From an uncultured bacterium (lineage in GTDB: Bacteria; Cyanobacteriota; Vampirovibrionia; Gastranaerophilales; Gastranaerophilaceae): DNA of 64,000 bases. The stretch is taken from positions 28,016-92,015 of the forward strand of contig CASDVM010000027.1 of NCBI GenBank assembly GCA_949284415.1, given 5' to 3'. Both the position numbers and the translations under genes were made by a program. Within the stretch, counting starts at the first letter, position 1. Each line of letters starts with the position of its first letter. Positions 8,776 through 64,000 of this stretch are shown here, one piece after another. The notes under the pieces are model-generated. The model saw only the letters and a program-made list of their open reading frames with translations. It was not told the origin of the DNA and searched no databases.

Positions 8776-8996
8776 GCTGTCAATACCTTTTTATACTCCC
8801 GTTTTAATTCCTATAATATTATAGCAAAAACTAATTTTTCCCGTCCAAAATAAAAGAAATTTATTACTTTTTGTAATACAAATTCGTACGTTTGTATGTT
8901 TTATCGGCAAAAAAGTGTTAAAAAACGTAAAAATACTTGCTTTTAAAATAAATTACGCTATAATTAAGGATGTACAAAGAGAGAAGGAGTTTTATT

Positions 8997-9275
8997 ATGA
9001 ACAAAGAAGAATTAGTACAAGAAATTGCAAAAAAATCTAACGTAACTCAAAAAGAAGCATCAGAAGTTTTGGGTGCTTTAATTGAAACTATTCAGAAAAC
9101 GGTTTCAAAAGGCAAAAAAGTTACATTAGTAGGCTTCGGTACTTTTGAATCAAGAAAAAGAGCAGCAAGAGTCGGCCGTAACCCTCAAACCGGCAAGGAA
9201 CTTAAAATCCCTGCAAGAACAGTTCCGGCATTTTCAGCTGGTAAAAAATTCAAAGAAGCTGTTAACAAAAAATAA
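8997..9275 (+). CDS. hup: HU family DNA-binding protein
   Basis: MNKEELV...GFGTFE...RNPQTG..I motifs. AGAAGGAG SD before the ATG at 8997. Confidence 0.93.
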   Translation: MNKEELVQEIAKKSNVTQKEASEVLGALIETIQKTVSKGKKVTLVGFGTFESRKRAARVGRNPQTGKELKIPARTVPAFSAGKKFKEAVNKK

Positions 9276-9297
9276 GCAGTTTTTTGAAAGCTTTGTA

Positions 9298-9333
9298 AAC
9301 AACGGACTTAACAATATTGTTAAGTCCGTTGTT
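9298..9333 (+). terminator. Hairpin after hup
   Basis: AACAACGGACTTAACA-ATAT-TGTTAAGTCCGTTGTT, a perfect 16-bp stem. It overlaps the -35 of the next promoter. Confidence 0.6.
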
Positions 9334-9345
9334 GTATGATATAAT
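9317..9345 (+). promoter_or_regulatory. Sigma70-like promoter of pilin locus A
   Basis: TTGTTA, 17-nt spacer, then TGATATAAT (extended -10), about 35 nt upstream of the leader ATG. Confidence 0.55.
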
Positions 9346-9379
9346 AATATTAAAATTGAATTTAAGAAAGGAGCAAAGT

Positions 9380-9472
9380 ATGGGAAGTTTATTAAGAAAT
9401 GTAAATCGGGGGGGGGGGGCATTCTCGGCTGACAGGTGGCAAGAAGTCAGGAAGTCAGGTTGTTTACATTAA
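9380..9472 (+). other. Leader ORF of pilin locus A, containing a G12 tract at 9408-9419
   Basis: AGGAG at 9369-9373, ATG at 9380, sequence MGSLLRNVNRGGG, then the tract. As assembled it stops at 9470-9472. With 11 G it reads into the stop-free frame that continues as ORF 9489..10481. Confidence 0.7.
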
Positions 9473-9488
9473 TGTCATTGCGTATTTA

Positions 9489-10481
9489 TTGCGCAATCCG
9501 GAATTTTTCATAAAAAGGTCGCATACCATATGCGCGATGCCGGGTCTTAATATTAAATTCCTCGCCCTTTGGAAGAGAGTGTCCGAAGGACAGGGGATGG
9601 GCTTGTTACAAAGAAGGATGTCCTTGTTTAATGACTCAAAAGAGTCTCGTTATTACACAGAAAGTTCATGCAAAACTGATGTTGCGGGTGCAGCGGCTAC
9701 GATTCCGAAACGAACTTATTCACTTATTAACCTATTCTCTTATTCTCTTCATAAAAAAGCAGCGTTTACGCTTGCAGAGGTCTTGATAACATTAGGAATT
9801 ATCGGAATCGTAGCCGCTATGACTATGCCGTCTCTTATTTCGAATTACAGACATAAAGTTTTAGAAACCCAATTTAAAAAGGCATATTCTGTTATCAGCC
9901 GGCTTGGTTCAATGATTATTTCAGAGTATGGTGATTGTTCGTATAGTCAAACTGAAGATATAAAGGAGTTTATTTTATCTAATCTTATTAAGGCGGATCA
10001 GACGAGTTCTTCGGATAAATATACTAACTTTTTTACGTATACCAAAAACAAGGCATCTGTCGGAATTCATTTTAACTGTTTGGATAATGTTTCTTGGACA
10101 AACAGCAAAAGCGGTTCAACACCGGATGGAATGCAATTCGCTCTCTGTTCTCATAACAGCGGTATTGGAACAATAGTTGCAGTTGATACTAACGGAGCGG
10201 GAAAAAGACCTAATGCATTCGGTCATGATATATTTTTCTTTCATTTTAATACGGGAAATTGCAGGCTTGAACCTATAACATATACTATCCGCAATTGTAC
10301 TGATGAAGAAAAAGACAGTTGCACACAATCTTCAGATACATATAACGGATGGAAGAGTGTTAATGGAGAATGTTCTCATACAAGTACATCTTCTACAAAC
10401 GGATTTGCCTGTGCACGGTATGCTATTGCAAATGTATGTCCTGACAGTTCGGGCAAAGGATATTTTGATTGTCTGCCTTAG
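9489..10481 (+). CDS. Type IV pilin-like / pseudopilin-like protein A. The true start is probably the leader ATG at 9380, in frame only when the tract is in phase
   Basis: KKAAFTLAEVLITLGIIGIVAAMTMPSLISNYR prepilin-type motif at residue 91 of the tracked ORF; VDTNGAGKRPNAFGHDIFFFHF family motif. The frame is open back to 9405. Confidence 0.8.
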   Translation: MRNPEFFIKRSHTICAMPGLNIKFLALWKRVSEGQGMGLLQRRMSLFNDSKESRYYTESSCKTDVAGAAATIPKRTYSLINLFSYSLHKKAAFTLAEVLITLGIIGIVAAMTMPSLISNYRHKVLETQFKKAYSVISRLGSMIISEYGDCSYSQTEDIKEFILSNLIKADQTSSSDKYTNFFTYTKNKASVGIHFNCLDNVSWTNSKSGSTPDGMQFALCSHNSGIGTIVAVDTNGAGKRPNAFGHDIFFFHFNTGNCRLEPITYTIRNCTDEEKDSCTQSSDTYNGWKSVNGECSHTSTSSTNGFACARYAIANVCPDSSGKGYFDCLP

Positions 10482-11071
10482 AACTTTACTTTTTCAGCCT
10501 GTCTTGCTTCTTTTTCAAGAAGATTTGATTTATATAATATTTTTTTCTTTAATTTATTTTTTATCATAGCTTTAATACCTTTTTCATAGTAAACTTCCAA
10601 GTCGTTAATAAAAGTTAGATCAGGATACTGTCTTAGGGCTTTTGTATATTCTTTAGCTTTTTCAAATAACGGATGGCCTCTTTTGATTACACCGTCTTTT
10701 GCGATTGTTTGTTTATAAAATTTTTCGTTAAATTCCAGATGATTATACATCGGGAATTTTTGCAATATAAAACCTTTGAAATTATTCAGTCCTTTATCGA
10801 TATTTTTTGAAAGACCTGCAAAATATCTGGCAATAATCTGATATTGTTCAATATGTTTTGCTTCATGTTTTATAAATTTTTTAATAAGCGGACGGAATAA
10901 TCTGTTGTTATAAATAAAGTTCAAATTAATTTCGGCAGTATACGGATTTGCGCTGGCTGCTGTATTATCAAGGAATAAACTTGTATGGATTTTCGGTTTT
11001 ACGGGTAATTTATTTTTTTCAGCAACTTGATTTAGAGTATTTAGTATAAACCTGCACTGTTTGATTTTCAT
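10478..11071 (-). CDS. Hypothetical protein with an HExxH motif (HEAKH)
   Basis: 197-aa ORF. Its stop overlaps the stop of pilin A in convergent orientation. No family recognised beyond HExxH. Confidence 0.5.
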   Translation of the reverse strand: MKIKQCRFILNTLNQVAEKNKLPVKPKIHTSLFLDNTAASANPYTAEINLNFIYNNRLFRPLIKKFIKHEAKHIEQYQIIARYFAGLSKNIDKGLNNFKGFILQKFPMYNHLEFNEKFYKQTIAKDGVIKRGHPLFEKAKEYTKALRQYPDLTFINDLEVYYEKGIKAMIKNKLKKKILYKSNLLEKEARQAEKVKF

Positions 11072-11237: not shown

Positions 11238-11285
11238 ATGAAAGATTTATTAAGAATTGTGAACGCGGGGGGGGGCGCTTCTTAG
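11238..11285 (+). other. Leader ORF of pilin locus B, containing a G9 tract at 11267-11275
   Basis: AGGAG at 11227-11231, ATG at 11238, sequence MKDLLRIVNAGGG. It stops at 11283-11285 as assembled. With 8 or 11 G it is in frame with ORF 11371..12219, and there is no stop between them. Confidence 0.7.
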
Positions 11286-11370
11286 CTCCTTATCAATAAT
11301 TTTAACTTGTCAAAATAAAAAAAACTGTTATAATAGTGATAAAATACATCACAATTATAAGGGATTTAAC

Positions 11371-12219
11371 TTGGAAAAATTAAAAGGTTTTACCCGTGCG
11401 GAAGGTGCGCATGTAAGCGACTTTGACAAGATACGCAGAGCAGCATTTACTTTGGCAGAAGTTTTGATAACATTAGGAATTGTAGGAGTTGTAGCAGCCA
11501 TGACAATGCCCGCGCTGATAAATAATTACAGGGCAAAAGTCTTAGAAATAAGTTTTAAAAAAGCTGATTCCATTATTACCCAAGCAATGCAAACAACAAT
11601 GTATGAATACGGGTTTACAAGGTATTATGATTTCGGGATATTTTGTAGCGGTGAGTATTGTAAAGATACAAAACCTGAAGTTTACTTACCTCTGAACAAT
11701 TTATGGAAAAAGCAATTCAGCGGTTTAGAAGAGACAGGTTGGCAGCAAATAAAATCTAAAAATTATCCGTTTGCTAAATTTTGGGGAGAAAAAGCTAATT
11801 TTAATTACGTATTTATGGTTGCCGGTGCCAAGAATAATACTTCTCTAAAGGCATATTTTATGAAAGATGGAATGTTAATCAGTGAAATTATTTTTGAGGC
11901 AAATAATGCTTCGGAATTGGGTGATAAAAGTCATAGGTATACAATATTTCCATTTATATTTGTAGATACAAACGGACCGGCAAAAGGTCCGAATCGTTTA
12001 GGTTATGATATGTTCTATTGGGTTAAAATGACATGTTATTTTACATACTGCGATCCTTTATCTGATAATGTAAGAGGTTGTTATTTATGGGCAAGAAAAG
12101 ATCAAAATCCTTATGATAATTCGGTCAGTTATTGGAAATCATTGTATAAATCAAAGAGTTACTGGGAAAAATTAAAATCTATAGGCGGTGGTAATGGAGA
12201 ACCCAAAGAATTATATTAA
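11371..12219 (+). CDS. Type IV pilin-like / pseudopilin-like protein B
   Basis: RRAAFTLAEVLITLGIVGVVAAMTMPALINNYR and VDTNGPAKGPNRLGYDMFYW. A degenerate first motif MEKLKGFTRAE lies at the tracked TTG start. Confidence 0.8.
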   Translation: MEKLKGFTRAEGAHVSDFDKIRRAAFTLAEVLITLGIVGVVAAMTMPALINNYRAKVLEISFKKADSIITQAMQTTMYEYGFTRYYDFGIFCSGEYCKDTKPEVYLPLNNLWKKQFSGLEETGWQQIKSKNYPFAKFWGEKANFNYVFMVAGAKNNTSLKAYFMKDGMLISEIIFEANNASELGDKSHRYTIFPFIFVDTNGPAKGPNRLGYDMFYWVKMTCYFTYCDPLSDNVRGCYLWARKDQNPYDNSVSYWKSLYKSKSYWEKLKSIGGGNGEPKELY

Positions 12220-17993: not shown

Positions 17994-18081
17994 TACAGAA
18001 TTATTTTACCATGAAATTTTTTCTTAGTAAAAGATTCTAAGTTTACCAGGTAAATAAAAGAACAGGTTAATAAGAGAATAA

Positions 18082-18187
18082 GTCGTTCGCACTCTCTCCT
18101 ATGAAAGAGGGTTGAGGGCAGAGTTGATTTTTACCCACTCCCTTTACTTCCTCTGTTTTGCTCACCCGTGAATAACGGGAGTGCGAC
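18082..18187. repeat. Palindromic intergenic repeat element
   Basis: TCGCACTC at 18087-18094 pairs with GAGTGCGA at 18179-18186. The GAATAAGTC flank motif is shared with 36575-36589 and, in reverse complement, 47510-47518. Confidence 0.4.
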
Positions 18188-18868: not shown

Positions 18869-18989
18869 TTTAAGTAAACGGGTGAATAAATTAGAAATAA
18901 GGCTATTTTTTGTACTTTAAATTTGATAAGAACTTATTAGCTTATTAGCGTATTTACCTATTCACTTAATAGTTACAGAAAGGCAAAAT

Positions 18990-21202: not shown

Positions 21203-22027
21203 TTGAAGAGTTATATGAAAAACGCTTTTACGTTAACCGGAGGTGCTACACACGTAGTTATGCCGAGCAATTCTTGTCAATTCTTAACAGGGCTTTGTAC
21301 CGGTGGTACCACGCACATAACCTGCTTTGATAATATTAGTAAAGCCGCCTTCACTCTGGCAGAGGTTTTGATAACTTTAGGGATTATCGGTATTGTTGCA
21401 GCATTGACAATGCCTGCTTTAATCGGTAATTATCGCAAAAAACAGACAGTTGTGCAGTTGAAGAAGATATATTCTGCAATGTCGCAGTCTGTGCAAATGT
21501 CTCAGAGTAATTATGGAGATATTGCTGACTGGGATTGGACACTTAGTACGGAAGATTTTTTTTAAAGATATTTGAGTTATAATTTTTCTGTTCTTAAGTA
21601 TTGCGGAAAAAAAGAAGGCTGTTGGAACAAAGATGGCGGGCTAATGCCTAATGGAAATAAATACAGTGATCCTCCGACATTTGCATCTGGCAGTGATAGA
21701 GCCAAAATCAGCTTATCTGATGGTGCGTTTATTGCTATGCGTAAACAGGACAATAACCATGTGCATATCAATGTGGATATTAACGGTTTTAAACGTCCTA
21801 ATACTTATGGAGTGGATATTTTTGTATTTACATTAACGGCTGTCCCTTTTTCAGACAGTTCTCATAAGATTGCTTCACCGGGGCTGTTTATGTTTGGACA
21901 TGGATTGAATGAAAATGAAATAAAATCAAATTATAATGGCTGTTCCAAAAATTCGAACGGTCTTATGTGCGGTGAAAAAATATTAATGGACGGCTGGGAT
22001 ATTAAAGACGATTATCCGTGGAAATAA
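21203..22027 (+). pseudogene. Type IV pilin-like protein D, interrupted by one in-frame TAA at 21566-21568
   Basis: Tracked ORFs 21203..21565 and 21572..22027 are in the same frame. The N-part has KAAFTLAEVLITLGIIGIVAALTMPALIGNYR; the C-part has DINGFKRPNTYGVDIFVFTL and DGWDIKDDYPW. The stop aligns inside a conserved block of the paralogs. Confidence 0.7.
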
Positions 22028-22581: not shown

Positions 22582-22632
22582 ATGAAAGATTTATTAAGAT
22601 TTGTAAATCGGGGGGGGGGCATTCTCGGCTGA
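22582..22632 (+). other. Leader ORF of pilin locus C, containing a G10 tract at 22610-22619
   Basis: AGGAG at 22570-22574, ATG at 22582, sequence MKDLLRFVNRGGG. It stops at 22630-22632 as assembled. With 11 G it is in frame with ORF 22689..23615. Confidence 0.7.
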
Positions 22633-22688
22633 CAGGTGGCAAGAAGTCAGGAAGTCAGGTTGTTTACATTAATGTCATTGCGTATTTA

Positions 22689-23615
22689 TTGCGCAATCCG
22701 GAATTTTTCATAAAAAGGTCGCACACCATATGCGCGATGCCGGGTCTTAATATTAAATTCCTCGCTCATTGGAAGAGGGGGGCCGAAGGACATGAGAGGG
22801 GCTTTTTACAAAGAAGGATGTCCTTGTTTAACGACTCAAAAGAGTCTCGTTATTACACAGAAAGTTCATGCAAAACTCATATTGCGGGTGCCGCGGCTAC
22901 ACTGCCGAAACGAACTTATTCACCTGTTCACTTATTTTCTTATTCACTTCACAAAAAAGCAGCGTTTACGCTTGCAGAGGTCTTGATAACATTAGGAATT
23001 ATCGGAATCGTAGCCGCTATGACTATGCCGTCATTGATAACTAATTACCGAAAAAAACAAACTGCTGTCAGACTTGAAAGGTTTTATTCTATAATGAGTC
23101 AGGCTGTTCTCAGATGGCAGCAGGACGAAGGAATTGTGCCTGAGGATATCAGGTTTCCTGCGGAGACCGTAAAAAATGGTGTAAAAACGCAGGAGTGGTT
23201 TTCTTCTACAATCGGTAAATATATAACAACTACATATCAAACAACTAACGGGCAAAATTTTTCTGCTGCATTTAATGACGGTTCCGGATTTGATTCTTAT
23301 ATAGGCAATGAAAACCAGTTTTTTATATTTTACTGCGTAGATTATAAGTATTGTATAAATGCTAACGGAGACGGAAATTATAACGGTAAAACAGGGTTCC
23401 TGTTTGAGATAAACCGAGGCAAATTTCTAACATCTTCTCCATATTTTGATAACAAGACAAGAGAAGAAATCTTAGAATCGTGCAAATACGGAAACAGAGA
23501 TGACCCGTCTGTGAGTTCAAAAGGACGCCGTCATGCCTGTGCAAGACTTATTCAGATGGACGGCTGGGAAATAAGAAAAGACTACCCATGGGAACAAACA
23601 ATGTTAGAAAATTAA
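22689..23615 (+). CDS. Type IV pilin-like / pseudopilin-like protein C
   Basis: KKAAFTLAEVLITLGIIGIVAAMTMPSLITNYRKKQ and a C-terminal DGWEIRKDYPW. The leader is near-identical to locus A. Confidence 0.8.
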   Translation: MRNPEFFIKRSHTICAMPGLNIKFLAHWKRGAEGHERGFLQRRMSLFNDSKESRYYTESSCKTHIAGAAATLPKRTYSPVHLFSYSLHKKAAFTLAEVLITLGIIGIVAAMTMPSLITNYRKKQTAVRLERFYSIMSQAVLRWQQDEGIVPEDIRFPAETVKNGVKTQEWFSSTIGKYITTTYQTTNGQNFSAAFNDGSGFDSYIGNENQFFIFYCVDYKYCINANGDGNYNGKTGFLFEINRGKFLTSSPYFDNKTREEILESCKYGNRDDPSVSSKGRRHACARLIQMDGWEIRKDYPWEQTMLEN

Positions 23616-27883: not shown

Positions 27884-30460
27884 TTAATTAAACAGGTTTA
27901 ACTGTGGAACTTCAACAGATGGAACATCAACGGATTTTTTGCGTGTTGAAAGGTTATTGGAATAATCTTTCTGCATCCTTGTCATTAATTCCTGCGAGCG
28001 CTTAATTACAGCCTGCGGCAACCCTGCCATTTTTGCTACCTGAATTCCGTAGCTTTTGCTTGCACCGCCCTGGACTATTTTACGTAAAAATTCAATCTCT
28101 CCGTTTTCTTCCGTTATTGTAATTCTGTAATTTTTTATCTGCGGATAAGTTTTTGTCATTACGTTCAACTCATGATAATGTGTTGCAAAAATACATCTCG
28201 CTTTTATTTTTGTCGCAATGTATTCTGCAACTGACCATGCTATTGCAACACCATCGTAAGTGCTTGTACCTCTGCCGATTTCATCAAGAAGTATAAAACT
28301 CCTTTCTGTTGCGGAATTTAAAATACATGCTGTTTCAATCATCTCAACCATAAAAGTTGACTGTCCGAGTGTCAAATCATCAGATGCTCCGACACGTGTA
28401 AAGATTTTGTCAATAATACCGATTTTTGCGTAATCTGCAGGAACCCATGAACCTATCTGGGCTAAAATTGCAATCAGTGCATTCTGACGCATATAGGTTG
28501 ATTTACCTGCCATATTCGGGCCTGTCAAAATCATAAACTGTGTTGAATCAAGCGAATTACATTTTAATTCCAGGTCATTCGGAACATATTCCCCGAGCGG
28601 AAGTATTTTTTCAAGCACAGGGTGGCGCCCGTTTTTGACAATAAAATCATCTGATTCATCAATAACCGGTTTGCAGTAATTATTCTCGACAGCGGTTTGC
28701 GCAAGTCCTGTATATACATCGCATTTTGCTATGCATTCGGCAATTTCTCTGATTTTTGAGACGAATTCTTTTGAATATTCCCTGAAATCACAGAATAATT
28801 TATATTCCAATTCCGTTGATTTGAATTTTGCGGAAAGAACATCATCTTCATGTTTTTTTAACTCTTCTGTTATAAATCTTTCGCCCGTTGTCAGGGTTTG
28901 CTTTCTTACATAACCTTCGGGAATTTGATTAAGATAAGAATTTGAAATTTCGATAAAGTATCCGAATACTTTGTTAAATCCTATTTTTAAAGATTTAATG
29001 CCTGTTCTTTCTTTTTCCTTTTCTTCAAAGTTTTTCAGCCAATTTTCTCCTCCGGTCAAAAGTTCACGGAAATAATCAAGTTCACCTGATACGCCTTCTT
29101 TTAAAATTCCGCCTTCTTTTATAACCTGTGGAGCGTTTTCCGCAATTGTTCTGTCAATTAATGATGCATATTCAGATATTTCATCTCTATATTGGTTAAT
29201 CTCTGCCAGCGGGTTATATTCAAGCTTTTCTGTTGCATCTAAAAGCTGCGGAAGAATCATCAAAGATGATTTCAAACTTAGGAAGTCTCTTGGGTTTGCT
29301 GAACTGTTAGACATTCTTGTTGCAAGTCTCTGTATATCATATATTTTTTCTAAAAGATTTGATATAGTGATGCGTTCGTCTGACTTTTCAACAAGTTCGG
29401 TTATGCAATTCTGACGGTTTAGAATATCTTCAACATGTTTTAGAGGCTGGCAGACCCAGTTTTTCAAAAGCCTTGCGCCCATATTTGTTTTTGTTTTGTC
29501 AACAGACCAGAGTAATGAACCGAATTTGTTTTTATCGCGCAGAGTTTCCGTAAGCTCAAGATTTTTTCTCGTACTTCCGTCCAAAATCATGTATTCGGAA
29601 AGTTCATAAGGCTCAATTCTTTCGAATTTGGGAACATTGTCTTTTAATGTTTCCCAGATATAAGCAAGCAAGGCGCCTGCTGCTCTGAACCCTGTTTTAT
29701 ATCTGTCATAGCCGAAAGATTCAAGACTGGTCGCCTGAAAAACTGCCTTAAGGTTGTTTTCTGCAAAATTAGTTTCAAAAACTGATGACGGAATTTTTGA
29801 ACAATTGTAATTTTTGGTAATTTCTTCCGGCAAATCAATCTTTTCATCAGGTACAATCTGAAACGGCATAATTTTTTGTTTCACAGAAGGACCTACGACT
29901 TCTGCAGGTGCAATTCTTGTCAATTCTGCAAGAATAAGCTCATAAGGAGCCTGTGTAACTTTAAACTCCCCTGTTGAAATATCGGCGTATGAAAATCCCC
30001 ATATTCCGCTTTTTTCGTCTTTAAACAGTGCACAAATATAATTGTTGGAGTTCTGCTGTAGAAAGTCGCTTTCTGTCAGAGTACCTGATGTTACAATTCT
30101 TGTAACCCCTCTTTTTACAAGCCCTTTTGCAAACTTTGGATCTTCAAGCTGGTCGCATATTATAACTTTATAATTTTTTTGGACGAGTTTTTCAAGATAA
30201 TTATTTACGGCCTTTGCAGGAATTCCCGCAAGCGGAATTCTTCCGAATTTCCCCTGTTCTCTGCCGGTCAGCGTAAGTTCAAGTTCTTTAGACATCGTAA
30301 CGGCATCTTCAAAAAATGTTTCGTAAAAATCCCCGAGTCTGTATAGCAGAATTTTATCCGGATTCTGGTGTTTAATTTTTAAATACTCCTGCATTGCAGG
30401 TGTCAGCTCCTCGACTTTAATATCAGCTGTATTAATAAGATTGATTTCATTATTTTTCAT
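27884..30460 (-). CDS. mutS: DNA mismatch repair protein MutS
   Basis: TPAMQEYL, TGPNMAGKST, LLDEIGRGTSTYDG and ATHYHEL. The ATG at 30460 avoids overlap with the divergent gene at 30498. Confidence 0.95.
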   Translation of the reverse strand: MKNNEINLINTADIKVEELTPAMQEYLKIKHQNPDKILLYRLGDFYETFFEDAVTMSKELELTLTGREQGKFGRIPLAGIPAKAVNNYLEKLVQKNYKVIICDQLEDPKFAKGLVKRGVTRIVTSGTLTESDFLQQNSNNYICALFKDEKSGIWGFSYADISTGEFKVTQAPYELILAELTRIAPAEVVGPSVKQKIMPFQIVPDEKIDLPEEITKNYNCSKIPSSVFETNFAENNLKAVFQATSLESFGYDRYKTGFRAAGALLAYIWETLKDNVPKFERIEPYELSEYMILDGSTRKNLELTETLRDKNKFGSLLWSVDKTKTNMGARLLKNWVCQPLKHVEDILNRQNCITELVEKSDERITISNLLEKIYDIQRLATRMSNSSANPRDFLSLKSSLMILPQLLDATEKLEYNPLAEINQYRDEISEYASLIDRTIAENAPQVIKEGGILKEGVSGELDYFRELLTGGENWLKNFEEKEKERTGIKSLKIGFNKVFGYFIEISNSYLNQIPEGYVRKQTLTTGERFITEELKKHEDDVLSAKFKSTELEYKLFCDFREYSKEFVSKIREIAECIAKCDVYTGLAQTAVENNYCKPVIDESDDFIVKNGRHPVLEKILPLGEYVPNDLELKCNSLDSTQFMILTGPNMAGKSTYMRQNALIAILAQIGSWVPADYAKIGIIDKIFTRVGASDDLTLGQSTFMVEMIETACILNSATERSFILLDEIGRGTSTYDGVAIAWSVAEYIATKIKARCIFATHYHELNVMTKTYPQIKNYRITITEENGEIEFLRKIVQGGASKSYGIQVAKMAGLPQAVIKRSQELMTRMQKDYSNNLSTRKKSVDVPSVEVPQLNLFN

Positions 30461-30497
30461 AGTTATAATAATATTATAACATGACAAGGATTTCAAC

Positions 30498-31097
30498 ATG
30501 GGATGTTTAAAAAATATTTTACGCGCAATAATTCTTACCCTTGCAGCAGTCGGTTTTTTGGCGCTCGGCGACAAAGATTTGATAGTTTCTCTTGTCGGGA
30601 ATTATTTTAATCCGCCAAAAGATGTTGTAATGGAACGTGCGCAAAAGGTCGGTGATTTTTCAAAGATTAATGATGAATTTGAAATTGAAAAAGCCGCGGG
30701 AATAATGGGCTATAATGCGGTTGTTGCAGAACACAGAGCATCGGGGCAGAAAATGCTTGTAGTGGATTCCGGTGATAAAAAAATATTAACTGCAGATGAT
30801 ATAAAATCAGATAATGTTGAAGAAAAATTGCATAAGGCAATAAGTAAAATCAAATATCAGGCAATTTCTGTTGATGACTTAAAAGTTACAAAGCATGGTA
30901 CTATGAATTCTTACGGCAAAGAGGTTCCTTATGTGAGATTTGAAGCACGTGTTAAAAAACTCCCGATAGGCGATATCGGCGGTATAATATCTGTTGCGAG
31001 CACTAAAGACGGCGAGGAACGGATTTTGATATCCGCAAATGAAAAAAATAAATATTCACAATTGATTTCTGATGAATTTTTCAGGAAAATAAAATAG
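30498..31097 (+). CDS. Hypothetical exported protein
   Basis: N-terminal hydrophobic signal-like segment ILTLAAVGFLALG. No motif recognised. Confidence 0.5.
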   Translation: MGCLKNILRAIILTLAAVGFLALGDKDLIVSLVGNYFNPPKDVVMERAQKVGDFSKINDEFEIEKAAGIMGYNAVVAEHRASGQKMLVVDSGDKKILTADDIKSDNVEEKLHKAISKIKYQAISVDDLKVTKHGTMNSYGKEVPYVRFEARVKKLPIGDIGGIISVASTKDGEERILISANEKNKYSQLISDEFFRKIK

Positions 31098-36522: not shown

Positions 36523-36879
36523 TACATAAGGAATGTTATTGGAAGTAAATAAGTAAATAGAAGAATAAGAGAATAAGTCTTTACGGTGCGCTGAAGCGCA
36601 CAAAAAATATAAATATCCGGCTGTTAGCGAAGTGAACAATCAATGTTTGCGAAACAATGACAAAGCCGGCTATTGTCTGAGCGTAATATTTCAAGATTCT
36701 GAAACAAGTTCAGAATGACATACGAGCGAGTTTAGCCGGCTCGAGTTGAGCAATTACAATTGATTAGTGAACTGAGTGAAAGCCGGGAGCTTCTTTGCGG
36801 TACTTTCTTGTCGGTACAAGAAAGTACCAACAAGGTATCTTTAGTAGATTGTTTTACTTCCAATAACATTCCTTATGTA
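36523..36879. mobile_element. MITE-like element, or a large structured RNA, bounded by 27-bp perfect inverted termini
   Basis: TACATAAGGAATGTTATTGGAAGTAAA at 36523-36549 is the exact reverse complement of 36853-36879. The 303-bp core has no ORF and holds three strong hairpins (36586-36601, 36696-36716, 36799-36828). Confidence 0.45.
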
Positions 36880-37195: not shown

Positions 37196-40100
37196 TTATT
37201 CTTCGTCTTCATTACCGAGCTGGAAGTCAGGAGAACCGAACATACCTTCAATTTCTTCCAAAATCGCAGACGGTTTTCTTGCCTGATTTCTTTGAGCTAC
37301 CGCACGTTTTCTTTCTTCACGTTCTTTCTCTTCGTTCGCATTTGAAAGATGGTGGAAGCCTGTGCCTGCAGGTATCAAACGACCGATGATAACGTTTTCT
37401 TTCAAACCTCTCAACATGTCTTTTTTACCTTCAACGGCTGCTTCTGTCAGGATTCTTGTTGTTTCCTGGAATGAAGCTGCTGAAATGAAACTTTCTGTGT
37501 TCAAAGAAGCTTTTGTGATACCTAATAACATATATTCACAAGTTGCAGGTTGACCGCCTTTTTCTTCAACTTCTTTGTTTTCTTTTTCGAATGTCTGCAT
37601 TTCAATTAATTCACCCGGCAGTAATGTTGTATCACCTGCATCGACAACTTTAACTTTTTTAGTCATCTGTCTTACGATGATTTCAACGTGTTTATCGGCA
37701 ATTTCTACACCTTGAGAACGATATACTCTCTGTACTTCATCCACAAGATATTGCTGTGCGGCTTCCGGTCCGCAGAGTCTTATAACATCGTGCGGGTTCA
37801 AAGGTCCGCTTGTCAAAGGCTGACCTTTTTTGATTTTCTGTTTATTCTGAACAACGATGTTTGCATCAATTGCGTATTTGATCTCGGTTCTGCCATTGTC
37901 AGTAACAAGATAGAGTCTCGGCAAATCTTCATCCGTTTCAATTTCCGCAATACCGTCTTCTTCTGCCAGAATAGCACAATCTTTAGGTTTGCGGCCTTCA
38001 AGAAGTTCTTCAACCCTCGGAAGACCCTGAACGATATCACCTGTTTTTTGTCTTTCAAATACAAGTGTTGCAATGTTATCACCGCGGAGAACAAGTGCGC
38101 CTGCTTCAACCTGTAACATAGTACCCGGGCTGATTAAGTATGGACGACCGTTTCTGATTGTTATTTCACCTTTATTAACAGATGTTACCATACCTGAAAC
38201 GGTTGATTTTTCTCCGCTGTCCGCAATGATTGAATCAAGTTTTACAAAGTCGCCTTTTTTAACGTTTGCTTTGCCTTTTACAGACAATGTTGTTTCATAA
38301 GTTTCGCTTGTTAAAAGAAGTCTTCTTGCATCTTCTTTTTCGGATTTTATTGAAGCAACGCCGTCATTGATTGCCAGTACCTGAGTTTTAGCAACAGGTG
38401 TTTTCGGGTCAATAGTCTGGCCGTCTTTTACAAGAAGTTCTGTTTGAAGTGATGACATTGTTTTTGCATTGCCTTCAAATTCACGGCGGACGATTAAGTT
38501 TTCAAGAACAACTATTCTTAAATTATCTTTATCATCAAGTTCTACCATACCTTTAAGGTGTGATAAGTAGCCCTGCATCTGCAGAACAAGACTTGTTCTT
38601 GTAATTGTAGAACCATCGAGATTTCTAACTCTTGCACCGTCTTTGTATTGCAATTGTGTTACAGGTACAATGTCAATCAAGCTGTCAGATGTGTTGAATT
38701 TGATAGATACATTTTTTTGTTCAACATTTAATACCTGAACAGGTCTGATAAGTATCTGTATAGGCTGATTTGATATGTTATCTTCATCAAGCGAAAGACT
38801 TGAGTCAAGTTCTTCATCAAGATCATCGATATCCAGATCATCCATTGAAGAATCCATAATCGTAACGATAGAAGTTTCTTTTACTTTAATACCGTCTGCA
38901 ATTACGGTGCCTTTTTTTACAACTTCGCCTTCGTCAACCTTTAATTCCGAAACACTTGAAAGTGTATGAATTTCACCAGGGCGGATTGTTATTTCATGGA
39001 TAACATCGTTGTATTCTTTGAATTCAACAATACCGTCAATGTGGCAGTAAACATCTTTTACAACTTCGGTGCCTGCTGTAACGTGAGTTCCGTTTTCAAC
39101 CATTTTTAAAGAAGAATCTTTATTAATCTGGTGAATTTCTTCCGGAATAAATACAACAGAACCCGGTTTTGTAATAATCTGGTTTTCGTCTACTTCAACA
39201 TCAACATATCTGATTTCGCCTGATGAAGTTACTGCACATTCATCATCAATAAGTTCTGCGATAATCATACCGTTTTCAACCGTTGTATCAACAGGTGCTT
39301 TTACGATATATTTTTCACCGGTTTTGTTAACTGTCCACAACTGTTCTTTTTTAGTTTGTTCAAATGTCGCATTTTCAGGCATCAATGAAGCAATTACTAT
39401 TGTCAATTCTTTACCTTGAACAATTTTTTTGATATTTTTGCCTTCAAATTTAACATCTTCAATAACTAAATCTTCACCGAAACGGACTTCACCGCCGTGT
39501 TCAGAGATTGTTAAAGTTTCTGCGAGTTTTTCGCCTTCTTTAATTTTCTGACCGTCTTTTACAAGAACTTTAGATCCGCCGGGGAGGTTATAAACATCAC
39601 CGCCAAGAACCCAGATAATACCTTGTTTGTTGGTAGTTCTTGAGATGTTGCCCTGTCTGTCTTTCTTTTCATCAGCTACAAAATCTTCATATAACACTTC
39701 ACCGGAAAGATCTGATGTAATATCTTTTGTGGCTTTTTCTGTCAGACGTGAGCCTGAGCCTTGAGCTGACGGTTCAAACTGGGCAAGTTTAAAGCCTTTT
39801 TTAACCTGCATTCCGTTTGTAAAGAAGATTGTAGAGCCTGCCGGAATATGGTATTTTTCAGTTCTTTTGGCGCCTTTAATTTCAATGTCGGTTTCGTAAT
39901 TAGAGATATTAACAACATCGCCATGACGTGTTCTTAATTCTCTTGTTTTTACATTAGAAATTACTTCACCGTCTTGTTTTGCAATTACTTCTTTGATTGC
40001 ATCTTTAACGCCTACCGCACCGCCAGTGTGGAATGTTCTCATTGTAAGCTGTGTACCGGGTTCACCGATTGACTGCGCTGCAATAATACCGATTGCTTCC

Positions 40101-41056
40101 CCGATATCAACGAGTTTCTGGGTCGTCATTGCCCAGCCGTAGCATTTCTGGCAGATTCCGTATTCAAGACCGCAGGTTAAACCTGAACGAACTTTCAATT
40201 CCTGAAGATTCAGATGTTTAACTTTTTGAATATCATCTCTGTTCATTGTTGTTCCTGCTTTTACAAGAACTGTACCATCCGTATCAACGATATCTTCTGC
40301 AATTGTTCTGCCAAGTAACCTGTCAATCAGAGGAACAATAACATTATCACCGTCAGTAATAGGTTTCATGTTAATTGATTTTGTAGTATGGCAGTCATCG
40401 GCACGGATAATGACATCCTGAGCAACGTCTACCAGTCGTCTTGTCAAATAACCTGAGTCAGCTGTTTTCAACGCCGTATCTACAAGCCCTTTTCTTGCGC
40501 CGTATGATGAAATGATGTATTCCGTAACGGATAAGCCTTCTTTAAAGTTTGATTTAATCGGCAAGTCGATGATTTGTCCCTGCGCATCTGCCATCAAACC
40601 TCTCATTCCCACAAGCTGAGATACCTGTGATAAGTTACCTCTGGCACCTGAGAATGCCATCATATATACAGGGTTTAATTTGTCAAAGTTTTCAACTACC
40701 TGAGATGTTAATTTAGCTGTTGTTTCAGACCAGGTGTCGATAACTTTTGTATATCTTTCTACTTCGGTGATTTCACCTTTAAGATATCTGTTAGTTGATT
40801 TTTCGATTTCTTTTTCGGCTTCTTGAAGCAATTCTTTCTTTGCTTCCGGAACCTGCAAGTCTGCAATAGAAATTGTTGTTCCGGATTTCGTAGCATACTT
40901 ATAGCCGAGGTTTTTCAGGCTGTTAGCCAATTCTGCGGTTTTAGCCCCGCCAAACTCCAGATACATTTGTGAAAGCAAATTGTTTAATCCTTTTTTATCC
41001 ATTTGCTTGTTAATGAAATCTACAGTTTTTTTACCATGTGTGTATGTTGTTTCCAT
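37196..41056 (-). CDS. rpoC2: RNA polymerase beta-prime subunit, C-terminal part (cyanobacterial-type split)
   Basis: Starts after the NADFDGD-containing part and carries the trigger-loop and C-terminal beta-prime blocks (GEAIGIIAAQSIGEPGTQLTMRTFHTGG) with a large lineage-type insertion. Confidence 0.95.
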   Translation of the reverse strand: METTYTHGKKTVDFINKQMDKKGLNNLLSQMYLEFGGAKTAELANSLKNLGYKYATKSGTTISIADLQVPEAKKELLQEAEKEIEKSTNRYLKGEITEVERYTKVIDTWSETTAKLTSQVVENFDKLNPVYMMAFSGARGNLSQVSQLVGMRGLMADAQGQIIDLPIKSNFKEGLSVTEYIISSYGARKGLVDTALKTADSGYLTRRLVDVAQDVIIRADDCHTTKSINMKPITDGDNVIVPLIDRLLGRTIAEDIVDTDGTVLVKAGTTMNRDDIQKVKHLNLQELKVRSGLTCGLEYGICQKCYGWAMTTQKLVDIGEAIGIIAAQSIGEPGTQLTMRTFHTGGAVGVKDAIKEVIAKQDGEVISNVKTRELRTRHGDVVNISNYETDIEIKGAKRTEKYHIPAGSTIFFTNGMQVKKGFKLAQFEPSAQGSGSRLTEKATKDITSDLSGEVLYEDFVADEKKDRQGNISRTTNKQGIIWVLGGDVYNLPGGSKVLVKDGQKIKEGEKLAETLTISEHGGEVRFGEDLVIEDVKFEGKNIKKIVQGKELTIVIASLMPENATFEQTKKEQLWTVNKTGEKYIVKAPVDTTVENGMIIAELIDDECAVTSSGEIRYVDVEVDENQIITKPGSVVFIPEEIHQINKDSSLKMVENGTHVTAGTEVVKDVYCHIDGIVEFKEYNDVIHEITIRPGEIHTLSSVSELKVDEGEVVKKGTVIADGIKVKETSIVTIMDSSMDDLDIDDLDEELDSSLSLDEDNISNQPIQILIRPVQVLNVEQKNVSIKFNTSDSLIDIVPVTQLQYKDGARVRNLDGSTITRTSLVLQMQGYLSHLKGMVELDDKDNLRIVVLENLIVRREFEGNAKTMSSLQTELLVKDGQTIDPKTPVAKTQVLAINDGVASIKSEKEDARRLLLTSETYETTLSVKGKANVKKGDFVKLDSIIADSGEKSTVSGMVTSVNKGEITIRNGRPYLISPGTMLQVEAGALVLRGDNIATLVFERQKTGDIVQGLPRVEELLEGRKPKDCAILAEEDGIAEIETDEDLPRLYLVTDNGRTEIKYAIDANIVVQNKQKIKKGQPLTSGPLNPHDVIRLCGPEAAQQYLVDEVQRVYRSQGVEIADKHVEIIVRQMTKKVKVVDAGDTTLLPGELIEMQTFEKENKEVEEKGGQPATCEYMLLGITKASLNTESFISAASFQETTRILTEAAVEGKKDMLRGLKENVIIGRLIPAGTGFHHLSNANEEKEREERKRAVAQRNQARKPSAILEEIEGMFGSPDFQLGNEDEE

Positions 41057-41161
41057 TTATATCTATCCTTTTTTTAACTTGTCAATGCACTCGGGTGGTC
41101 TTCATAACTTGTTTCAAGATTTTGAGACTTTTCCCTCGCATCTGTTTGTTTTATCGATTTC

Positions 41162-42871
41162 CTACGCAAGAGCATTTCTTACAGCTTCGTTGAAGATAAT
41201 TCTTCCTGCTGTTGTCTCAATTCTTTCACCGTGTTCGTCTCTTACGACAATTTTGTCGTGAAGATCGATTACGCCGACTTCAAGAGCTGAAATTGCATCC
41301 TGGAAGTTGTAGAAATATCCTTTAGGTTCCATTTCAGGATTTTTAAGTATTGTCAGGTAATACATACCCAATACCATGTCCTGTGTCGGAGTGATAATAG
41401 GTTTACCTGTTGCAGGAGCTAAGATGTTGTTAGTTGCTAACATTAACATTCTTGCTTCAGTCTGAGCCTCAATTGATAAAGGTACGTGAACAGCCATCTG
41501 GTCGCCGTCAAAGTCTGCGTTGAATGCCGTACATACAAGCGGATGAAGCTGGATTGCACGTCCTTCTACCAGTTTAGGCTCAAATGCCTGAATACCCAGT
41601 CTGTGAAGAGTCGGGGCACGGTTTAGCAATACGGGGTGTCCATCGATTACTTCTTCTAATATATCCCAGACAACAGCTTCCGAGCGTTCAATTTTCTTTT
41701 TAGCTGATTTTATGTTTTGTACATATCCTCTTTCAATCAATTTATTAACAACAAACGGTTTAAATAATTCGATTGCCATTTCTTTCGGTAAACCGCACTG
41801 GTTCAATTTTAATTGAGGACCTACAACGATTACTGAACGACCTGAGTAGTCAACACGTTTTCCTAATAAGTTTTGACGGAAACGTCCCTGTTTACCTTCG
41901 ATAATGTTAGATAAGGATTTCAATGCTCTGTTGTTTGGTCCGACAACTGTTCTTCCGCGTCTGCCGTTATCAATCAGGGCATCAACCGCTTCCTGCAACA
42001 TACGTTTTTCGTTACGTACAATGATTTCGGGGGCACCCATTTCCAAAAGTCTTTGTAAACGGTTATTTCTGTTGATTACGCGTCTGTATAAGTCGTTTAA
42101 ATCTGATGTTGCAAAACGTCCGCCGTCCAATTGAACCATCGGTCTTAAATCCGGAGGAGTTACAGGCAATACGTCCATAATCATCCATGTCGGATCCGTT
42201 TCTGATGAAATCAATGAATCAAGCAATCTTAAACGTTTGATAAGCTTGCTTTTCTTTTGTACGGAATTAACCGAACCTGCAAGTTCCGATCTTATTTCTT
42301 CTGCAAGTTCTTTTGTATTAACTTCCGAAAGAAGTTCTTTTATGGCTTCGGCACCGATTCCGACTTTTAATTCAGAATCTTCATGTTCTGCCATATAATC
42401 TTCATATTCTTCTTCGGACAACAATTGTAATTTTTTGAATTCGCTTTCGCCCGGATCAAGAACCACGTAGTTGTTGAAATAGATTACCTGTTCAAGATCT
42501 TTTAAAGTCATATCAAGAAGCAAGCCAAGATAAGAAGGAATACCTTTCAAAAACCAGATATGAGAAACGGGAGCTGCAAGTTTAATATGTCCCATTCTCT
42601 GTCGTCTTACCTTACTATCCGTAACTTCAACGCCGCAGCGTTCGCAGATAATACCTTTGTGTCTTACTCTTTTATATTTACCGCAATAGCATTCCCAGTC
42701 TTTAGAAGGTCCAAAAATTCTTTCGCAGAACAGACCGTCTCTTTCCGGTTTTAATGTACGGTAATTAATTGTTTCCGGTTTAGTAACTTCGCCGTAAGAC
42801 CATTTAAGTATTCTTTCCGGTGAAGCGATACTAATTCGTATATAGTCAAAATAATCTATGCTTGTTGACAT
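41162..42871 (-). CDS. rpoC1: RNA polymerase gamma subunit (N-terminal part of beta-prime)
   Basis: Zinc-binding [23 protein letters not shown] and catalytic [12 protein letters not shown]. Ends where rpoC2 begins. Confidence 0.95.
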
Positions 42872-43049
42872 TTATATCTCCTTTTTATACCACAGCTTAC
42901 GATTATCGTAATGCCGCCTGTTTAGTAATTTTTATTTATGTTTTCCGAATATTTTTATTATCGGCTTTATTTTGTCAACGCACTCGGTGCATAGCACCTC
43001 GCACCTGTTTTGTTCGGCAGGGGATATGATATCCCCGCCTCACAAATTA

Positions 43050-46000
43050 TTAAATATCTCCGAATGTAGTCGGTGTTTCAAAGAAATTGATATTTAACAA
43101 CTCTGAATCCATATCAGAAAGGACTCTTCTCGGGGCTGATTTTCTCAAATCATCCATATCTGTCATTAAATCAACTTCCTGACCGTCTTTTTTCGCTACC
43201 GTAATATCCAAACCGATACTTTGTAATTCTCTTACAAGTACTTTGAATGATTCGGGAATACCCGGTCTTGGAATATTGTCGCCTTTGACGATTGCTTCGT
43301 AAGCTCTGTTACGTCCGTTAACATCGTCAGATTTGATTGTTAACATTTCTTGCAGAGTATATGCAGCACCGTAAGCTTCCAACGCCCAAACTTCCATTTC
43401 ACCGAATCTCTGACCGCCGAATTGAGCTTTACCGCCCAGAGGCTGTTGAGTAACAAGTGAGTATGGACCTGTAGAACGTGCGTGAATTTTGTCATCTACA
43501 AGGTGGACAAGTTTAAGGATGTAGGAAAGACCGACAGCAACAGGTTCATCAAACGGTTCACCTGTTCTTCCGTCTATCAGTCTTACTTTTCCGTCTTCGT
43601 TAACCCAATCGCAGCCTGATTCTTTGATACCTTTAAGCAATTCTGCTTTAGTTGCTTTTTCAGATTGGTTATCACCGTATCTTTCATCAAAAGACGGTGT
43701 TTCATAGTAGTTGCCTGTCAGGTATGCTGCCAAACCTAACAATAATTCATAAGTCTGGCCGACATTCATACGAGAAGGTACACCGAGCGGGTTCAAAACG
43801 ATATCAACAGGAGTTCCGTCAGGTAAGAAAGGCATATCTTCTTTCGGTAAGATTCTGGATACAATACCTTTGTTACCGTGTCTTCCCGAAAGTTTATCAC
43901 CTACAGATACTTTACGTTTTTGAGCAATATAAACTCTGATAACAGTATTTGCTCCGGGCGGTAATTCATCACCTTTTTCTCTGTCGAATACCTTAACGTC
44001 AAGTACCCTTCCGCCTTCGCCGTGAGGAACTCTTAATGAGTTATCTTTCACGTCTCTTGCTTTTTCCGCAAAGATTGCGCGCAGGAGTTTTTCTTCCGGC
44101 GGATGTTCTGATTCGCCTTTCGGTGTAACTTTACCTACCAGTATATCGTCAGCATAAACTCTTGCACCGATTCTGACAATTCCGCGTTCATCAAGGTGTC
44201 TGAGTGCATCTTCAGAAACGTTCGGAATTTCACGGGTAATTTCTTCCGGCCCGAGTTTTGTTTGACGTGCATCTATTTCTAATTTTTCAATGTGTACTGA
44301 TGTGAAGATGTCATCGTGAACGCATCTTTCTGATAGCAGGATAGCATCTTCGTAGTTGTAACCTTCCCACGGCATATAGGCAACGATTACGTTTTTACCG
44401 AGCGAAAGTTCTCCGCAGTTTGTAGAAGCACCGTCAGCGATTACATCACCTTCCTTAACCTTTTCACCTTCATGTACCAGAGGTTTCTGGTTAATGCAGG
44501 TATCCTGGTTGCTTCTTACATATTTCATTAAATTATATACATGAGGTTTGTTGTGAATATCGCGAATGATAATTTCTTCACCTACAACTCTTTCTACAAC
44601 ACCGTCGCAGTCAGAGATTATAACCATACCTGAATCTCTTGCGGCTCTTTTTTCCATACCGGTTCCTACAACAGGTCTTTCAGTAATTAAAAGAGGTACT
44701 GACTGACGCTGCATGTTAGAACCCATCAGGGCACGGTTAGCATCATCGTGTTCAATAAACGGAATTAATGAAGTCGCAACAGAGATAATCTGAATCGGAG
44801 ATACACCTACAAAGTCAACTTTGCTTGACTGATCCATTGTAAATTCAGATCTGTAACGAACAGGTACATATTCATCTTTAAATGTTCCGTCCGGATTTAG
44901 TTGAACGTCTGCAGGTGCACATCTGAATTCTTCGTCTTCGTCTGCTGTCATATAAACTACTTCATCTGTAACTTTACCGTCTTTTACAACAAAGAACGGT
45001 GCTTCAACAAATCCGTAGTCGTTAACTTTTGCGTGAGTAGCCAGAGATCCGATCAATCCTGCGTTAGGACCTTCAGGAGTTTCAATCGGACAGATACGTC
45101 CGTAGTGTGAAGGGTGAATGTCGCGGACTGCAAAGCCTGCACGTTCTCTCATCAAACCGCCGGGTCCTAATGCTGAAATACGTCTTTTATGTGTTAATTC
45201 GGCAAGCGGGTTAATCTGATCCATGAACTGTGATAACTGAGAACTTCCGAAGAATTCTTTTAATGAAGCAACTAACGGTTTAGTGTTCAATAAATTCAGC
45301 GGAGTTAAAGTTTCAGAATCCTGCAGAGTCATTCTTTCTTTTACAATTCTTTCAATTCTTGAAAGACCTACTCTGAACTGGTTCTGCAATAATTCGCCGA
45401 CTGAACGTATTCTTCTGTTTCCTAAGTGGTCGATATCATCAACGGTTCCTTCATCATAAGTTAAGTTAATTAAGTACTCGATTGATGCAACGATATCCTG
45501 AACAGTCAAAGTTCTCTGGTTTTTCGGAATGTTCAGGTTTAATTTTTTATTTAATTTATAACGGCCTACACGTCCGATATCGTATTTCTTTTCATCAAAG
45601 AAACGGGCTTCCAATATTGAACGTCCGCCTGCAGCTGATGCAGGATCGCCGGGTCTTAATTTTTTATAAACTTCAATTAAAGCATCATCTGTTGTTTCTG
45701 CGGTATCTTTATCCAGAGTTTTCTTCAAAAATTCAAAGTGAGTGAATAAAGTTTCCATTTCAGAAACAGTGATACCCATAGCTTTCAATAAAGTTGTAGC
45801 TAAAATTTTTCTGTTTTTGTCTATTTTTACGTAGATAATGTCATTTGAATCTGTTTCGATTTTAAGCCATGCACCGCGGTTAGGAATCATAGTAGCGTTA
45901 TACAATCTTTTTCCTGCCGGTGAAACTTCGCGTTTAAAATAAACACCCGGTGAACGGACGATTTGAGATACGATTACACGTTCTGCTCCGTTAACAATGA

Positions 46001-46367
46001 ATGTACCTTTGTCCGTCATTGTCGGAATATCGCCGATATAGACTTCCTGTTCTTTAATTTCGCCGCTGTCGCGGTTAACAAGTCTTACCATAACGCGTAA
46101 TTGTTTTGCATAAGTTGCGTCATGAATTCTTGCTTCTTCAATTGTATACTTTGCATTGTCGAAAGTATAGTTGGGTAAAAAATGCAGTTCCAATCTGCCT
46201 GTGTAGTCTTTAATCGGAGAGAATGAAAGTAATTCTTCCTTCAAACCTTCTTTTAAAAACCATTCAAAAGATTTTTTCTGCACTTCAATAAGGTCGGGTA
46301 AATCATCCAAACGAGTATGCGGTATACCCATTGGAGTTACTCTTTCTGCATATTTTGTGTTAGACAT
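43050..46367 (-). CDS. rpoB: RNA polymerase beta subunit
   Basis: [29 protein letters not shown] and other beta blocks. Confidence 0.97.
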
Positions 46368-51671: not shown

Positions 51672-51763
51672 CTTAGTCTTGCATAAAACTTTTACGATAC
51701 TTCCTACTGCCCTATTGCCATAGTATTTTACTATCTTCTTAAATACTAAATCACAATCCCTTG

Positions 51764-51814
51764 CTATACAATACTTCTCGGGGGGGGGGCGATTCTCAGC
51801 TCTTCTCTATTCAT
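51764..51814 (-). other. Leader ORF of pilin locus F, containing a C10 tract (coding sense) at 51780-51789
   Basis: AGGAGG at 51823-51828 (minus strand), ATG at 51814, sequence MNREELRIAPPP. It stops at 51764-51766 as assembled. ATG to the pilin GTG is 143 nt, so one extra C (11) restores the frame. Confidence 0.7.
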
Positions 51815-63972: not shown

Positions 63973-64000
63973 CTGAGGGCAAGAAGTCAGGAAGTCAAGT

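Follow-up and report, generated by a model that had tools for sequence, protein, structure and literature searches.

How could a pilin-like gene be expressed when it has no start codon of its own? The question is raised by a stretch of 64,000 nucleotides (nt) from an uncultured bacterium of the family Gastranaerophilaceae (Cyanobacteriota, Vampirovibrionia, Gastranaerophilales; GenBank assembly GCA_949284415.1, contig CASDVM010000027.1, positions 28,016 to 92,015 of the forward strand), referred to below as the window. In one of its loci, locus A, a run of 12 G residues separates a promoter, a Shine-Dalgarno (SD) sequence and an ATG from a long open frame ending in a type IV pilin-like protein. 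Locus A is probably a slipped-strand phase-variation (contingency) locus, currently OFF since its tract is one G too long. The frame logic of the locus, the conserved open frame, the existence of in-frame alleles with 11 repeats and the tract differences between near-identical loci all argue for this. The Gastranaerophilales are uncultured, non-photosynthetic relatives of cyanobacteria inhabiting human and animal guts, and their surface biology is almost unknown.

The elements of locus A and of its counterparts in the window are listed in Table 1. A reading made from the sequence alone (the sequence-only reading) had proposed a TTGTTA-17-TATAAT promoter followed by AGGAG, ATG 9380, the peptide MGSLLRNVNR and 12 G, and all these elements were found. 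A TG at 9337 additionally makes the -10 box an extended one (TG-n-TATAAT), and the TGnTATAAT box recurs at a comparable distance from the ATG in sister loci B, C and E and in relatives. Nearly all related loci that were scored have an SD sequence and ATG 23–35 nt upstream of the tract, and the peptides encoded ahead of it are alike (MKDLLRIVN, MKDLLRFVN, MKELLRNIN, MKLLHNVN). Past G12, the frame of ATG 9380 reads ...RGGGAFSADRWQEVRKSGCLH up to the predicted stop, which is a TAA. The pilin frame opens at 9405 straight after another TAA, reads IGGGGHSRLTGGKKSGSQVVYINVIAYLLRNPEFF... and, as had been claimed, contains no stop up to KKAAFTLAEV (9765); it stays open to its own stop codon at 10479–10481. 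A tract of 11 G (or 8 or 14) joins ATG 9380 to this frame, and removal of one G yields a leader of 128 codons from the ATG to the F codon at 9765. The tract thus stands, as proposed, between the initiation signals and a 128-codon open leader fused to the pilin, and the proposed gene, 9380..10481 and phase-OFF by one G too many, is supported by the frame logic and by the comparison within the family.

No canonical start codon with an SD sequence close to the pilin domain was found at locus A. The in-frame ATG nearest to the prepilin motif lies about 49 codons upstream, as claimed, at 9618, with GAAGG abutting it at zero spacing, and the codon at which short-leader paralogues carry their ATG is CAT. 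In this window of 36% G+C there are 13 G/C runs of length 5, one of 6, none of 7–8 and five of 9–12; with five runs of 9–12 and none of 7–8, the tracts are not an effect of chance or base composition. A search of the whole window with Rfam 15 covariance models gave a tRNA as the sole match at gathering level and no riboswitch family, and a search of 9280–9800 gave nothing below an E value of 0.26.

Table 1. Features of locus A, with its upstream neighborhood, and sister loci in the window (ON, tract length joining the ATG to the pilin frame)
Feature	Position	Strand	Basis or remark
HU gene, 5' of the locus A inverted repeat	8970–9275		Pfam match
Perfect inverted repeat AACGGACTTAACA-ATAT-TGTTAAGTCCGTT	9300–9330	+	Hairpin alignment; overlaps the -35 hexamer
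Promoter-like site: TTGTTA (9317), 17 nt, TATAAT (9340–9345)	9317–9345	+	Promoter scan, 10/12 matches
SD sequence AGGAG (9369–9373), 6-nt spacer, ATG (9380–9382)	9369–9382	+	
Conserved pre-tract part of the cassette: nine codons MGSLLRNVN and the C of CGG	9380–9407	+	
G12 homopolymer, the switch	9408–9419	+	Also G12 in a second assembly
Leader, 345 nt, open in the pilin frame only	9420–9764	+	No Pfam domain; most of it (from 9489) predicted disordered
TAA closing the OFF-state product (30 codons, out of frame)	9470–9472	+	
Imperfect palindrome, ~70 nt, first module of the leader (GTCATTGCG...CGCGATGCC)	9473–9542	+	Common to loci C and E and relatives
Mature type IV pilin-like protein, 238 amino acids and stop, cysteine-rich C-terminal domain	9765–10481	+	
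Sister locus B: ATG 11238, G9 (11267–11275), open to the pilin; OFF	11238–12219	+	ON at 8 or 11
Sister locus C: ATG 22582, G10 (22610–22619), leader as in A; OFF	22582–23615	+	ON at 11
Sister locus D: ATG 51814, C10 (51780–51789), 78-codon open leader; OFF	50874–51814	-	ON at 11
Sister locus E: ATG 63922, G10 (63950–63959), A/C-type leader, cut by the window end; OFF	63922–64000	+	ON at 11

Each of the five tracts of the window lies 25–29 nt downstream of an SD sequence and ATG and precedes a pilin-like gene, the product of which contains FTLAEVLITLGIIGIVAA. None of the five is in frame, and no complete locus has a pilin-frame stop between tract and pilin. Relatives were collected by searching for the mature N-terminal pilin motif with one genome per species, which gave >570 confirmed matches; 80 loci were kept, nearly all from Candidatus Gastranaerophilales or Melainabacteria of human and animal gut metagenomes. 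Since they were fetched by the mature pilin motif alone, these loci are unbiased regarding the upstream region. Together they include 88 pilin motifs; a G/C run of at least 7 lies within 1 kb upstream of 47 of the genes, so the tract is present in about half of the pilin-like genes sampled across Gastranaerophilales. The pilin frame typically opens within 15 nt of the tract, and 41 of the 47 tract-linked genes have no pilin-frame stop between tract and motif over spans of 24–829 nt, against up to 29 stops in the other frames; the remaining six have a short leader and start codon of their own. A metagenome scan for the tract with its flanks found 12 loci, seven of which extend to the pilin, and all seven are stop-free in the pilin frame over 201–828 nt, compared with 5–23 stops in the other frames. 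Leader length among the relatives ranges from 21 to 298 codons. We infer from these sequences that the leader is translated from the upstream ATG, since selection keeping exactly the pilin frame open from the tract onward would be hard to explain otherwise.

Alleles in the predicted ON state exist. Five verified alleles have an uninterrupted open reading frame (ORF) from the SD sequence and ATG, and all of them carry 11 repeats (G11 in L002, L107, L110 and L111; C11 in L038). Eleven repeats would also put window loci A, C, D and E in frame; for B, the nearest ON lengths are 8 and 11. Near-identical loci differ in their tracts: L107 (G11) and L085 (G10) share 98.8% identity over 650 nt, the upstream gene included; L111 (G11) and L092 (G10) are identical over 297 nt upstream; and locus B, G9 in the window, is G10 in the second assembly of the same strain (L001), with zero substitutions over 6.9 kb. 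Locus C is G10 in three assemblies. As locus A is G12 in both available assemblies, these pairs demonstrate an ON/OFF polymorphism in DNA for the family rather than for locus A itself. Proteins beginning MFENVGGG... had been considered as G10 ON alleles; they proved to be OFF alleles whose called start is a TTG lying in the pilin frame.

In the G-strand orientation, the tracts of the window loci and of L003–L082 have the flanks TC-G(n)-C-R-N-T-Y-Y-Y-N-A-G-C-T. A weight matrix derived from 33 G-type loci, covering the 16 nt that follow the tract, scored a mean of +3.0 on the matching side of 11 C-type loci, compared with -6.0 ± 4.3 for random sequence and -9.9 for the opposite side of the tract. 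The motif is weak (~5 bits, with 1.6 bits at the first C) and tracks the DNA strand, not the direction of translation. It might reflect a cassette of common descent inserted either way, a protein-binding site, or a coding coincidence, AGCT being x-Leu in both directions. For an origin of the poly-C loci by inversion of DNA, an idea that was not followed further, no flanking inverted repeats or recombinase evidence turned up.

The 345 nt between tract and pilin at locus A contain 0 stops in the pilin frame and 2 and 8 in the other two, and they are 93% identical to the leader of locus C (22620–22964). The codon differences between these two leaders comprise 13 non-synonymous and 10 synonymous changes, a weak excess over the 23% synonymous changes expected by chance, based on too few changes to be decisive. 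Homologous leader DNA is read in differing frames at different loci: GGCAAGAAGTCAGGAAG encodes GKKSGS at locus A, and its counterpart at L065:582 encodes RQDVRK. In an AlphaFold2 model of the ORF from 9489, which leaves the first 23 post-tract codons outside, the leader part has a predicted confidence score (pLDDT) <50. Given the absence of a Pfam domain, the predicted disorder, the frame differences between loci and the pattern of codon changes, the peptide sequence of the leader seems unimportant in itself and the leader seems to be kept just as an open reading frame. The sole part resembling a canonical prepilin leader is its C-terminal end, HKKAA, and other leader ends (PRKRCA, LKKRAA) likewise resemble an ordinary short leader.

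Leaders of the database relatives reach ~250 residues and contain translations of palindromes in varied combinations (ILNLFQDL / LKQVQDD, PSPQPSPIGEGV, LSLWERV-like, and tandem AFTLAEGATHV units). The palindrome in the first module of leader A was considered as a structured functional RNA, two compensatory-looking changes between A and C having prompted an alignment. In the six-sequence alignment of the module, the palindrome is highly conserved but none of its 25 predicted pairs covaried, and it is therefore treated as a repeat element rather than a proven functional RNA. Small repeats of the leader type also occur in intergenic DNA of the window in either orientation (18040–18130, upstream of the EF-P gene efp; 18930–18971; 36542–36578), for example ...GAACTTATTCACTTATTAACC... 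and the hairpin CTCTCTCC...GAGGGTTGAGGG. Dispersed palindromic repeats may thus have piled up in a discarded part of the precursor, with frame-breaking insertions being purged. Many leaders (P0013, P0046, P0010) have one to three tandem pseudo-cleavage units AFTLAEGATHVxxFDNxRR ahead of the true AFTLAEVLITLG, and locus B has a degenerate copy, GFTRAEGAHVSDFDKIRRAA, at 11371–11445; such units suggest that the 5' end of the region coding for the pilin has been duplicated repeatedly. In the second assembly (L001, L083; ENA ERZ16268086 scaffold_714) there is an 8-bp tandem duplication GAATTTTT in leader A (window position 9500) and an 11-bp tandem duplication TCCGGAATTTT at the same spot in leader C (22696), in the loop of the palindromic module. 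Each shifts the frame by +2. These duplications could be a second variable site or, as A and C are identical there for ~190 bp, a scaffolding artefact.

The assignment of the downstream protein to type IV pilin-like proteins rests on its N-terminal motif and overall architecture, since the structural search described below gave no significant match. The G11 product matches PF07963 (24.2 bits, cut-off 21.2) and TIGR02532 (19.2 bits, cut-off 16.3), both at residues 124–148, far from the N-terminus, and contains the prepilin motif FTLAEVLITLGIIGIVAA, including Glu at +5, together with a hydrophobic helix. Cleavage is predicted at KKAA|F, and the mature protein would begin FTLAEVLITLGIIGIVAAMTMP. 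In the AlphaFold2 model, a 52-residue helix (95–146) starts from the FTLAEV motif and is followed by a beta-rich domain with pLDDT >90. Several paralogues match DUF6613. Paralogues with ordinary short leaders (MKQNNETKIG|FTLAEV at 27505 on the minus strand and another, MKKQKA|FTLAEV) indicate that the FTLAEV motif marks the processing site. The residue at -1 is Ala at locus A instead of Gly; Ala or Ser occupies this position in many relatives with short leaders too (e.g., MKKQKA|F, MKKNA|F), which makes this a trait of the lineage. Locus A lacks the short basic leader of about 5–30 residues that is expected of type IV pilins. Support for a pilus also comes from a Gastranaerophilales genome that is reported to encode pilA, pilB, pilC, pilT and pilD (PMC5877343).

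Slipped-strand phase variation at locus A would operate as follows. Having no start codon of its own, pilin A could be expressed only via the promoter/SD/ATG cassette at 9317–9382. Replication slippage would alter the length of the hypermutable G tract, nine codons past the ATG. A tract of 11 G (or 8 or 14) would let the ribosome continue through a 115-codon spacer into the pilin, and one of 12 G would make it halt after 30 codons, so that no pilin is made. The spacer, a patchwork of small palindromic repeats, would be translated as an unusually long leader and probably removed by prepilin peptidase at KKAA|FTLAE. The organism carries many such genes, five of them in the window. Each has a separate switch, and in the population consensus almost all are OFF; the presumed purpose is variation of a surface structure under pressure from the host or phages.

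Several findings weigh against this interpretation. The 128-residue leader, with lengths up to about 298 in relatives, is far beyond that of any type IV prepilin known to us. Foldseek comparison of the AlphaFold2 model with the PDB returned no match with E <1 (the TcpA pilus appeared at E 5.6). No prepilin peptidase, assembly ATPase or other pilus machinery was found among the window ORFs scanned. At locus A itself, no length variation was seen, the tract being G12 in both available assemblies. The ON state is also rare. Among 40 unbiased leader-type loci, 27 need +1 nt, 12 (locus A included) need -1 nt and one is in frame, which gives an ON share of ~1/40, or ~1/47 with the metagenome set, against a chance expectation of one third. 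Tracts of 10 repeats with ON at 11 are the most frequent, and G10 was found in 12 of 12 metagenome loci. Such uniformity is odd for a freely mutating tract.

Mutation bias may explain a mode just below 11, by analogy with Campylobacter jejuni, where G11 becomes G10 at a rate of 38.8 x 10^-4 per division, the reverse change has a rate of 3.7 x 10^-4, and tracts of G8–G9 are biased to insertion (PMC3401435). A contraction bias of this kind would alone produce a G10 mode with rare G11. Counter-selection of expressing cells also fits the excess of OFF alleles: the few loci with an ON length of 10 were found at 9, and those with an ON length of 9 at 10 or 8. The two explanations are not exclusive. 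An improbable alternative is programmed recoding, in which the off-by-one tract (typically G10/C10, with 11 in frame) is itself the conserved functional state and RNA polymerase slippage or ribosomal frameshifting, instead of DNA variants, yields a low level of pilin. This would account for the G10 in all 12 metagenome loci, several of them on contigs of about 3.5–4x coverage, and for the 27 of 40 unbiased loci needing exactly +1 nt with one in frame; moreover, the tract encodes GGG or PPP, so that tRNA re-pairing is possible in any frame. However, the direction of the shift is mixed (27 loci at +1 nt, 12, including locus A, at -1 nt), in-frame G11/C11 alleles exist, and near-identical copies of a locus were found as G10 and G11. 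Nor do the 60 nt downstream of the tract form a stable structure consistently, the Z-scores running from -2.5 to +1.6 and centred on 0. Documented cases of transcriptional slippage, moreover, involve A/T runs, not G/C runs. The approximately 10-fold faster contraction of G11 than expansion of G10 in C. jejuni (PMC3401435) offers an explanation of the off-by-one state that does not invoke recoding. A broader version, to which we likewise assign a low probability, is that the one-short G10/C10 tract, more than a resting point of mutation, is a selected device across species and paralogues, through which the whole pilin repertoire is expressed by programmed slippage, or that a dedicated factor reading the flank TC-G(n)-CRNTYYYNAGCT, which is tied to the strand and independent of coding orientation, sets the tract length. 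In either form, the maintained device would make the repeat-built leader a spacer that is translated and then discarded, a feature confined to these prepilins.

It is very unlikely that the pilin is translated from a start inside the presumed leader, with the upstream ATG, its tract and its short ORF acting as a regulatory upstream ORF or having nothing to do with the pilin. Gene callers do begin at internal codons (P0001 at MPGLNIK, ATG 9537; TTG at 9489), the spacer of locus B holds a TTGTCA...TATAAT-like stretch and a TTG with AAGGGA, and six tract-linked pilins have a short leader and start of their own. But internal initiation would free the DNA between tract and start to accumulate stops, and 41 of 47 genes are stop-free over as much as 829 nt; at locus A, neither ATG 9537, the first in the pilin frame, nor ATG 9618, the nearest to the motif, has a properly spaced SD sequence, and the position of the paralogues' ATG is occupied by CAT. 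Least probable of all is a decaying pseudogene, or a tract length that is an assembly or sequencing error, with no switch at all. Homopolymers are error-prone, the 8-bp and 11-bp duplications in leaders A and C of the second assembly would break the frame as well, and the neighboring pilin gene at 21215–22027 has an in-frame stop. Yet G12 was recovered twice independently, the ORF is intact on both sides of the tract here and across species, and tract position, flanks and ON length are conserved, with in-frame alleles existing. A family of pseudogenes would not retain hundreds of codons open in one frame alone.

Other genes of the window complete the picture. The leader of the pilin-like gene at 21215–22027 (plus strand), MKNAFTLTGGATHVV...SKAA|FTLAEV, has 46 codons and no G tract, and the gene is split by an in-frame TAA (21563–21565) directly downstream of a T8 run; a pseudogene and a second type of switch are both possible. 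Between loci A and B, an ORF of 197 amino acids on the minus strand (10478–11071) overlaps the stop of pilin A by 4 nt and has no Pfam match. A full-length MutS with all five MutS domains is encoded at 27884–30574 (minus strand), and the G tracts thus vary in a lineage with at least one component of mismatch repair. At 37196–46367 (minus strand), rpoB comes first and a split rpoC1 (569 amino acids) and rpoC2 (1286 amino acids) come next; we take the split beta-prime arrangement to be cyanobacterial, which would fit the assignment to Melainabacteria. With ThrRS, TGT and EF-P also encoded in the window, the pilin genes are scattered singly among housekeeping genes.

If slipped-strand phase variation is the correct interpretation, several consequences follow. 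A large repertoire of independently switchable pilins suggests strong fluctuating selection by host antibodies, phages or attachment sites. Prepilin leaders may run to hundreds of residues and be made of selfish palindromic repeats. Annotation pipelines call tract-gated pilins from internal codons or as fragments. Tract lengths provide a read-out of population state that is available in metagenomes, and mutation bias, counter-selection and recoding as causes of the near-universal off-by-one state could be distinguished from existing read data.

In the literature on homopolymeric tracts, pilins or phase variation in Gastranaerophilales and Melainabacteria, no description of tract-gated pilins was found, and the family is apparently large and undescribed. 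Among the closest known cases is pilC of Neisseria, a type IV pilus gene whose reading frame carries a homopolymeric G/C tract of G9–20 close to its 5' end (Jonsson et al. 1991, as cited in PMC5953494), so that frameshifts switch the protein ON and OFF. PilC differs in that it is no pilin but a tip adhesin or assembly factor and has an ordinary signal peptide, and its gene occurs in one or two copies without a long repeat-built leader, compared with dozens of loci here. In the Neisseria opa genes, the repeats are located in the region coding for the signal peptide. This family, with its CTTCT/CTCTT repeats (PMC5953494), resembles the loci described here as a multigene family of surface proteins with one leader-coding repeat per copy, independent switching and most copies OFF. 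It differs in the pentameric repeat, the normal-length leaders and the products, which are outer-membrane beta-barrels.

Campylobacter jejuni is not known to have mismatch repair, and the window analyzed here encodes MutS. Its polyG/C tracts of 8–12 in an A+T-rich genome, changing by single repeats with a mode set by mutation bias (PMC3401435), are similar to those of Gastranaerophilales. The mode is G9 in C. jejuni and G10 in the Gastranaerophilales loci, and the C. jejuni targets are mostly glycan-modifying enzymes, many of them ON in isolates. Type IV prepilins and pseudopilins share with the locus A product the basic residues, the small residue at -1, FTLAE with Glu5, the hydrophobic stretch of ~20 residues and, according to the model, a long N-terminal helix followed by a beta domain. 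Their described leaders have roughly 5–30 residues, whereas that of locus A has 128, with Ala at -1 and a globular domain (DUF6613 in paralogues) without a significant PDB match. Palindromic elements of Rickettsia are repeats located in frame within protein-coding genes and translated, and as dispersed palindromes that keep the frame inside ORFs they resemble the leader repeats. Here the repeats are piled in the presumably cut-off part of the precursor, their mobility is putative, and there is no sequence relationship between the two. The proposed mechanism is classical; what differs is its occurrence in a gut lineage of Melainabacteria, its scale (about half of a very large pilin-like family), the long, repeat-built and presumably translated leader of the prepilins and a default state that is OFF by one repeat.

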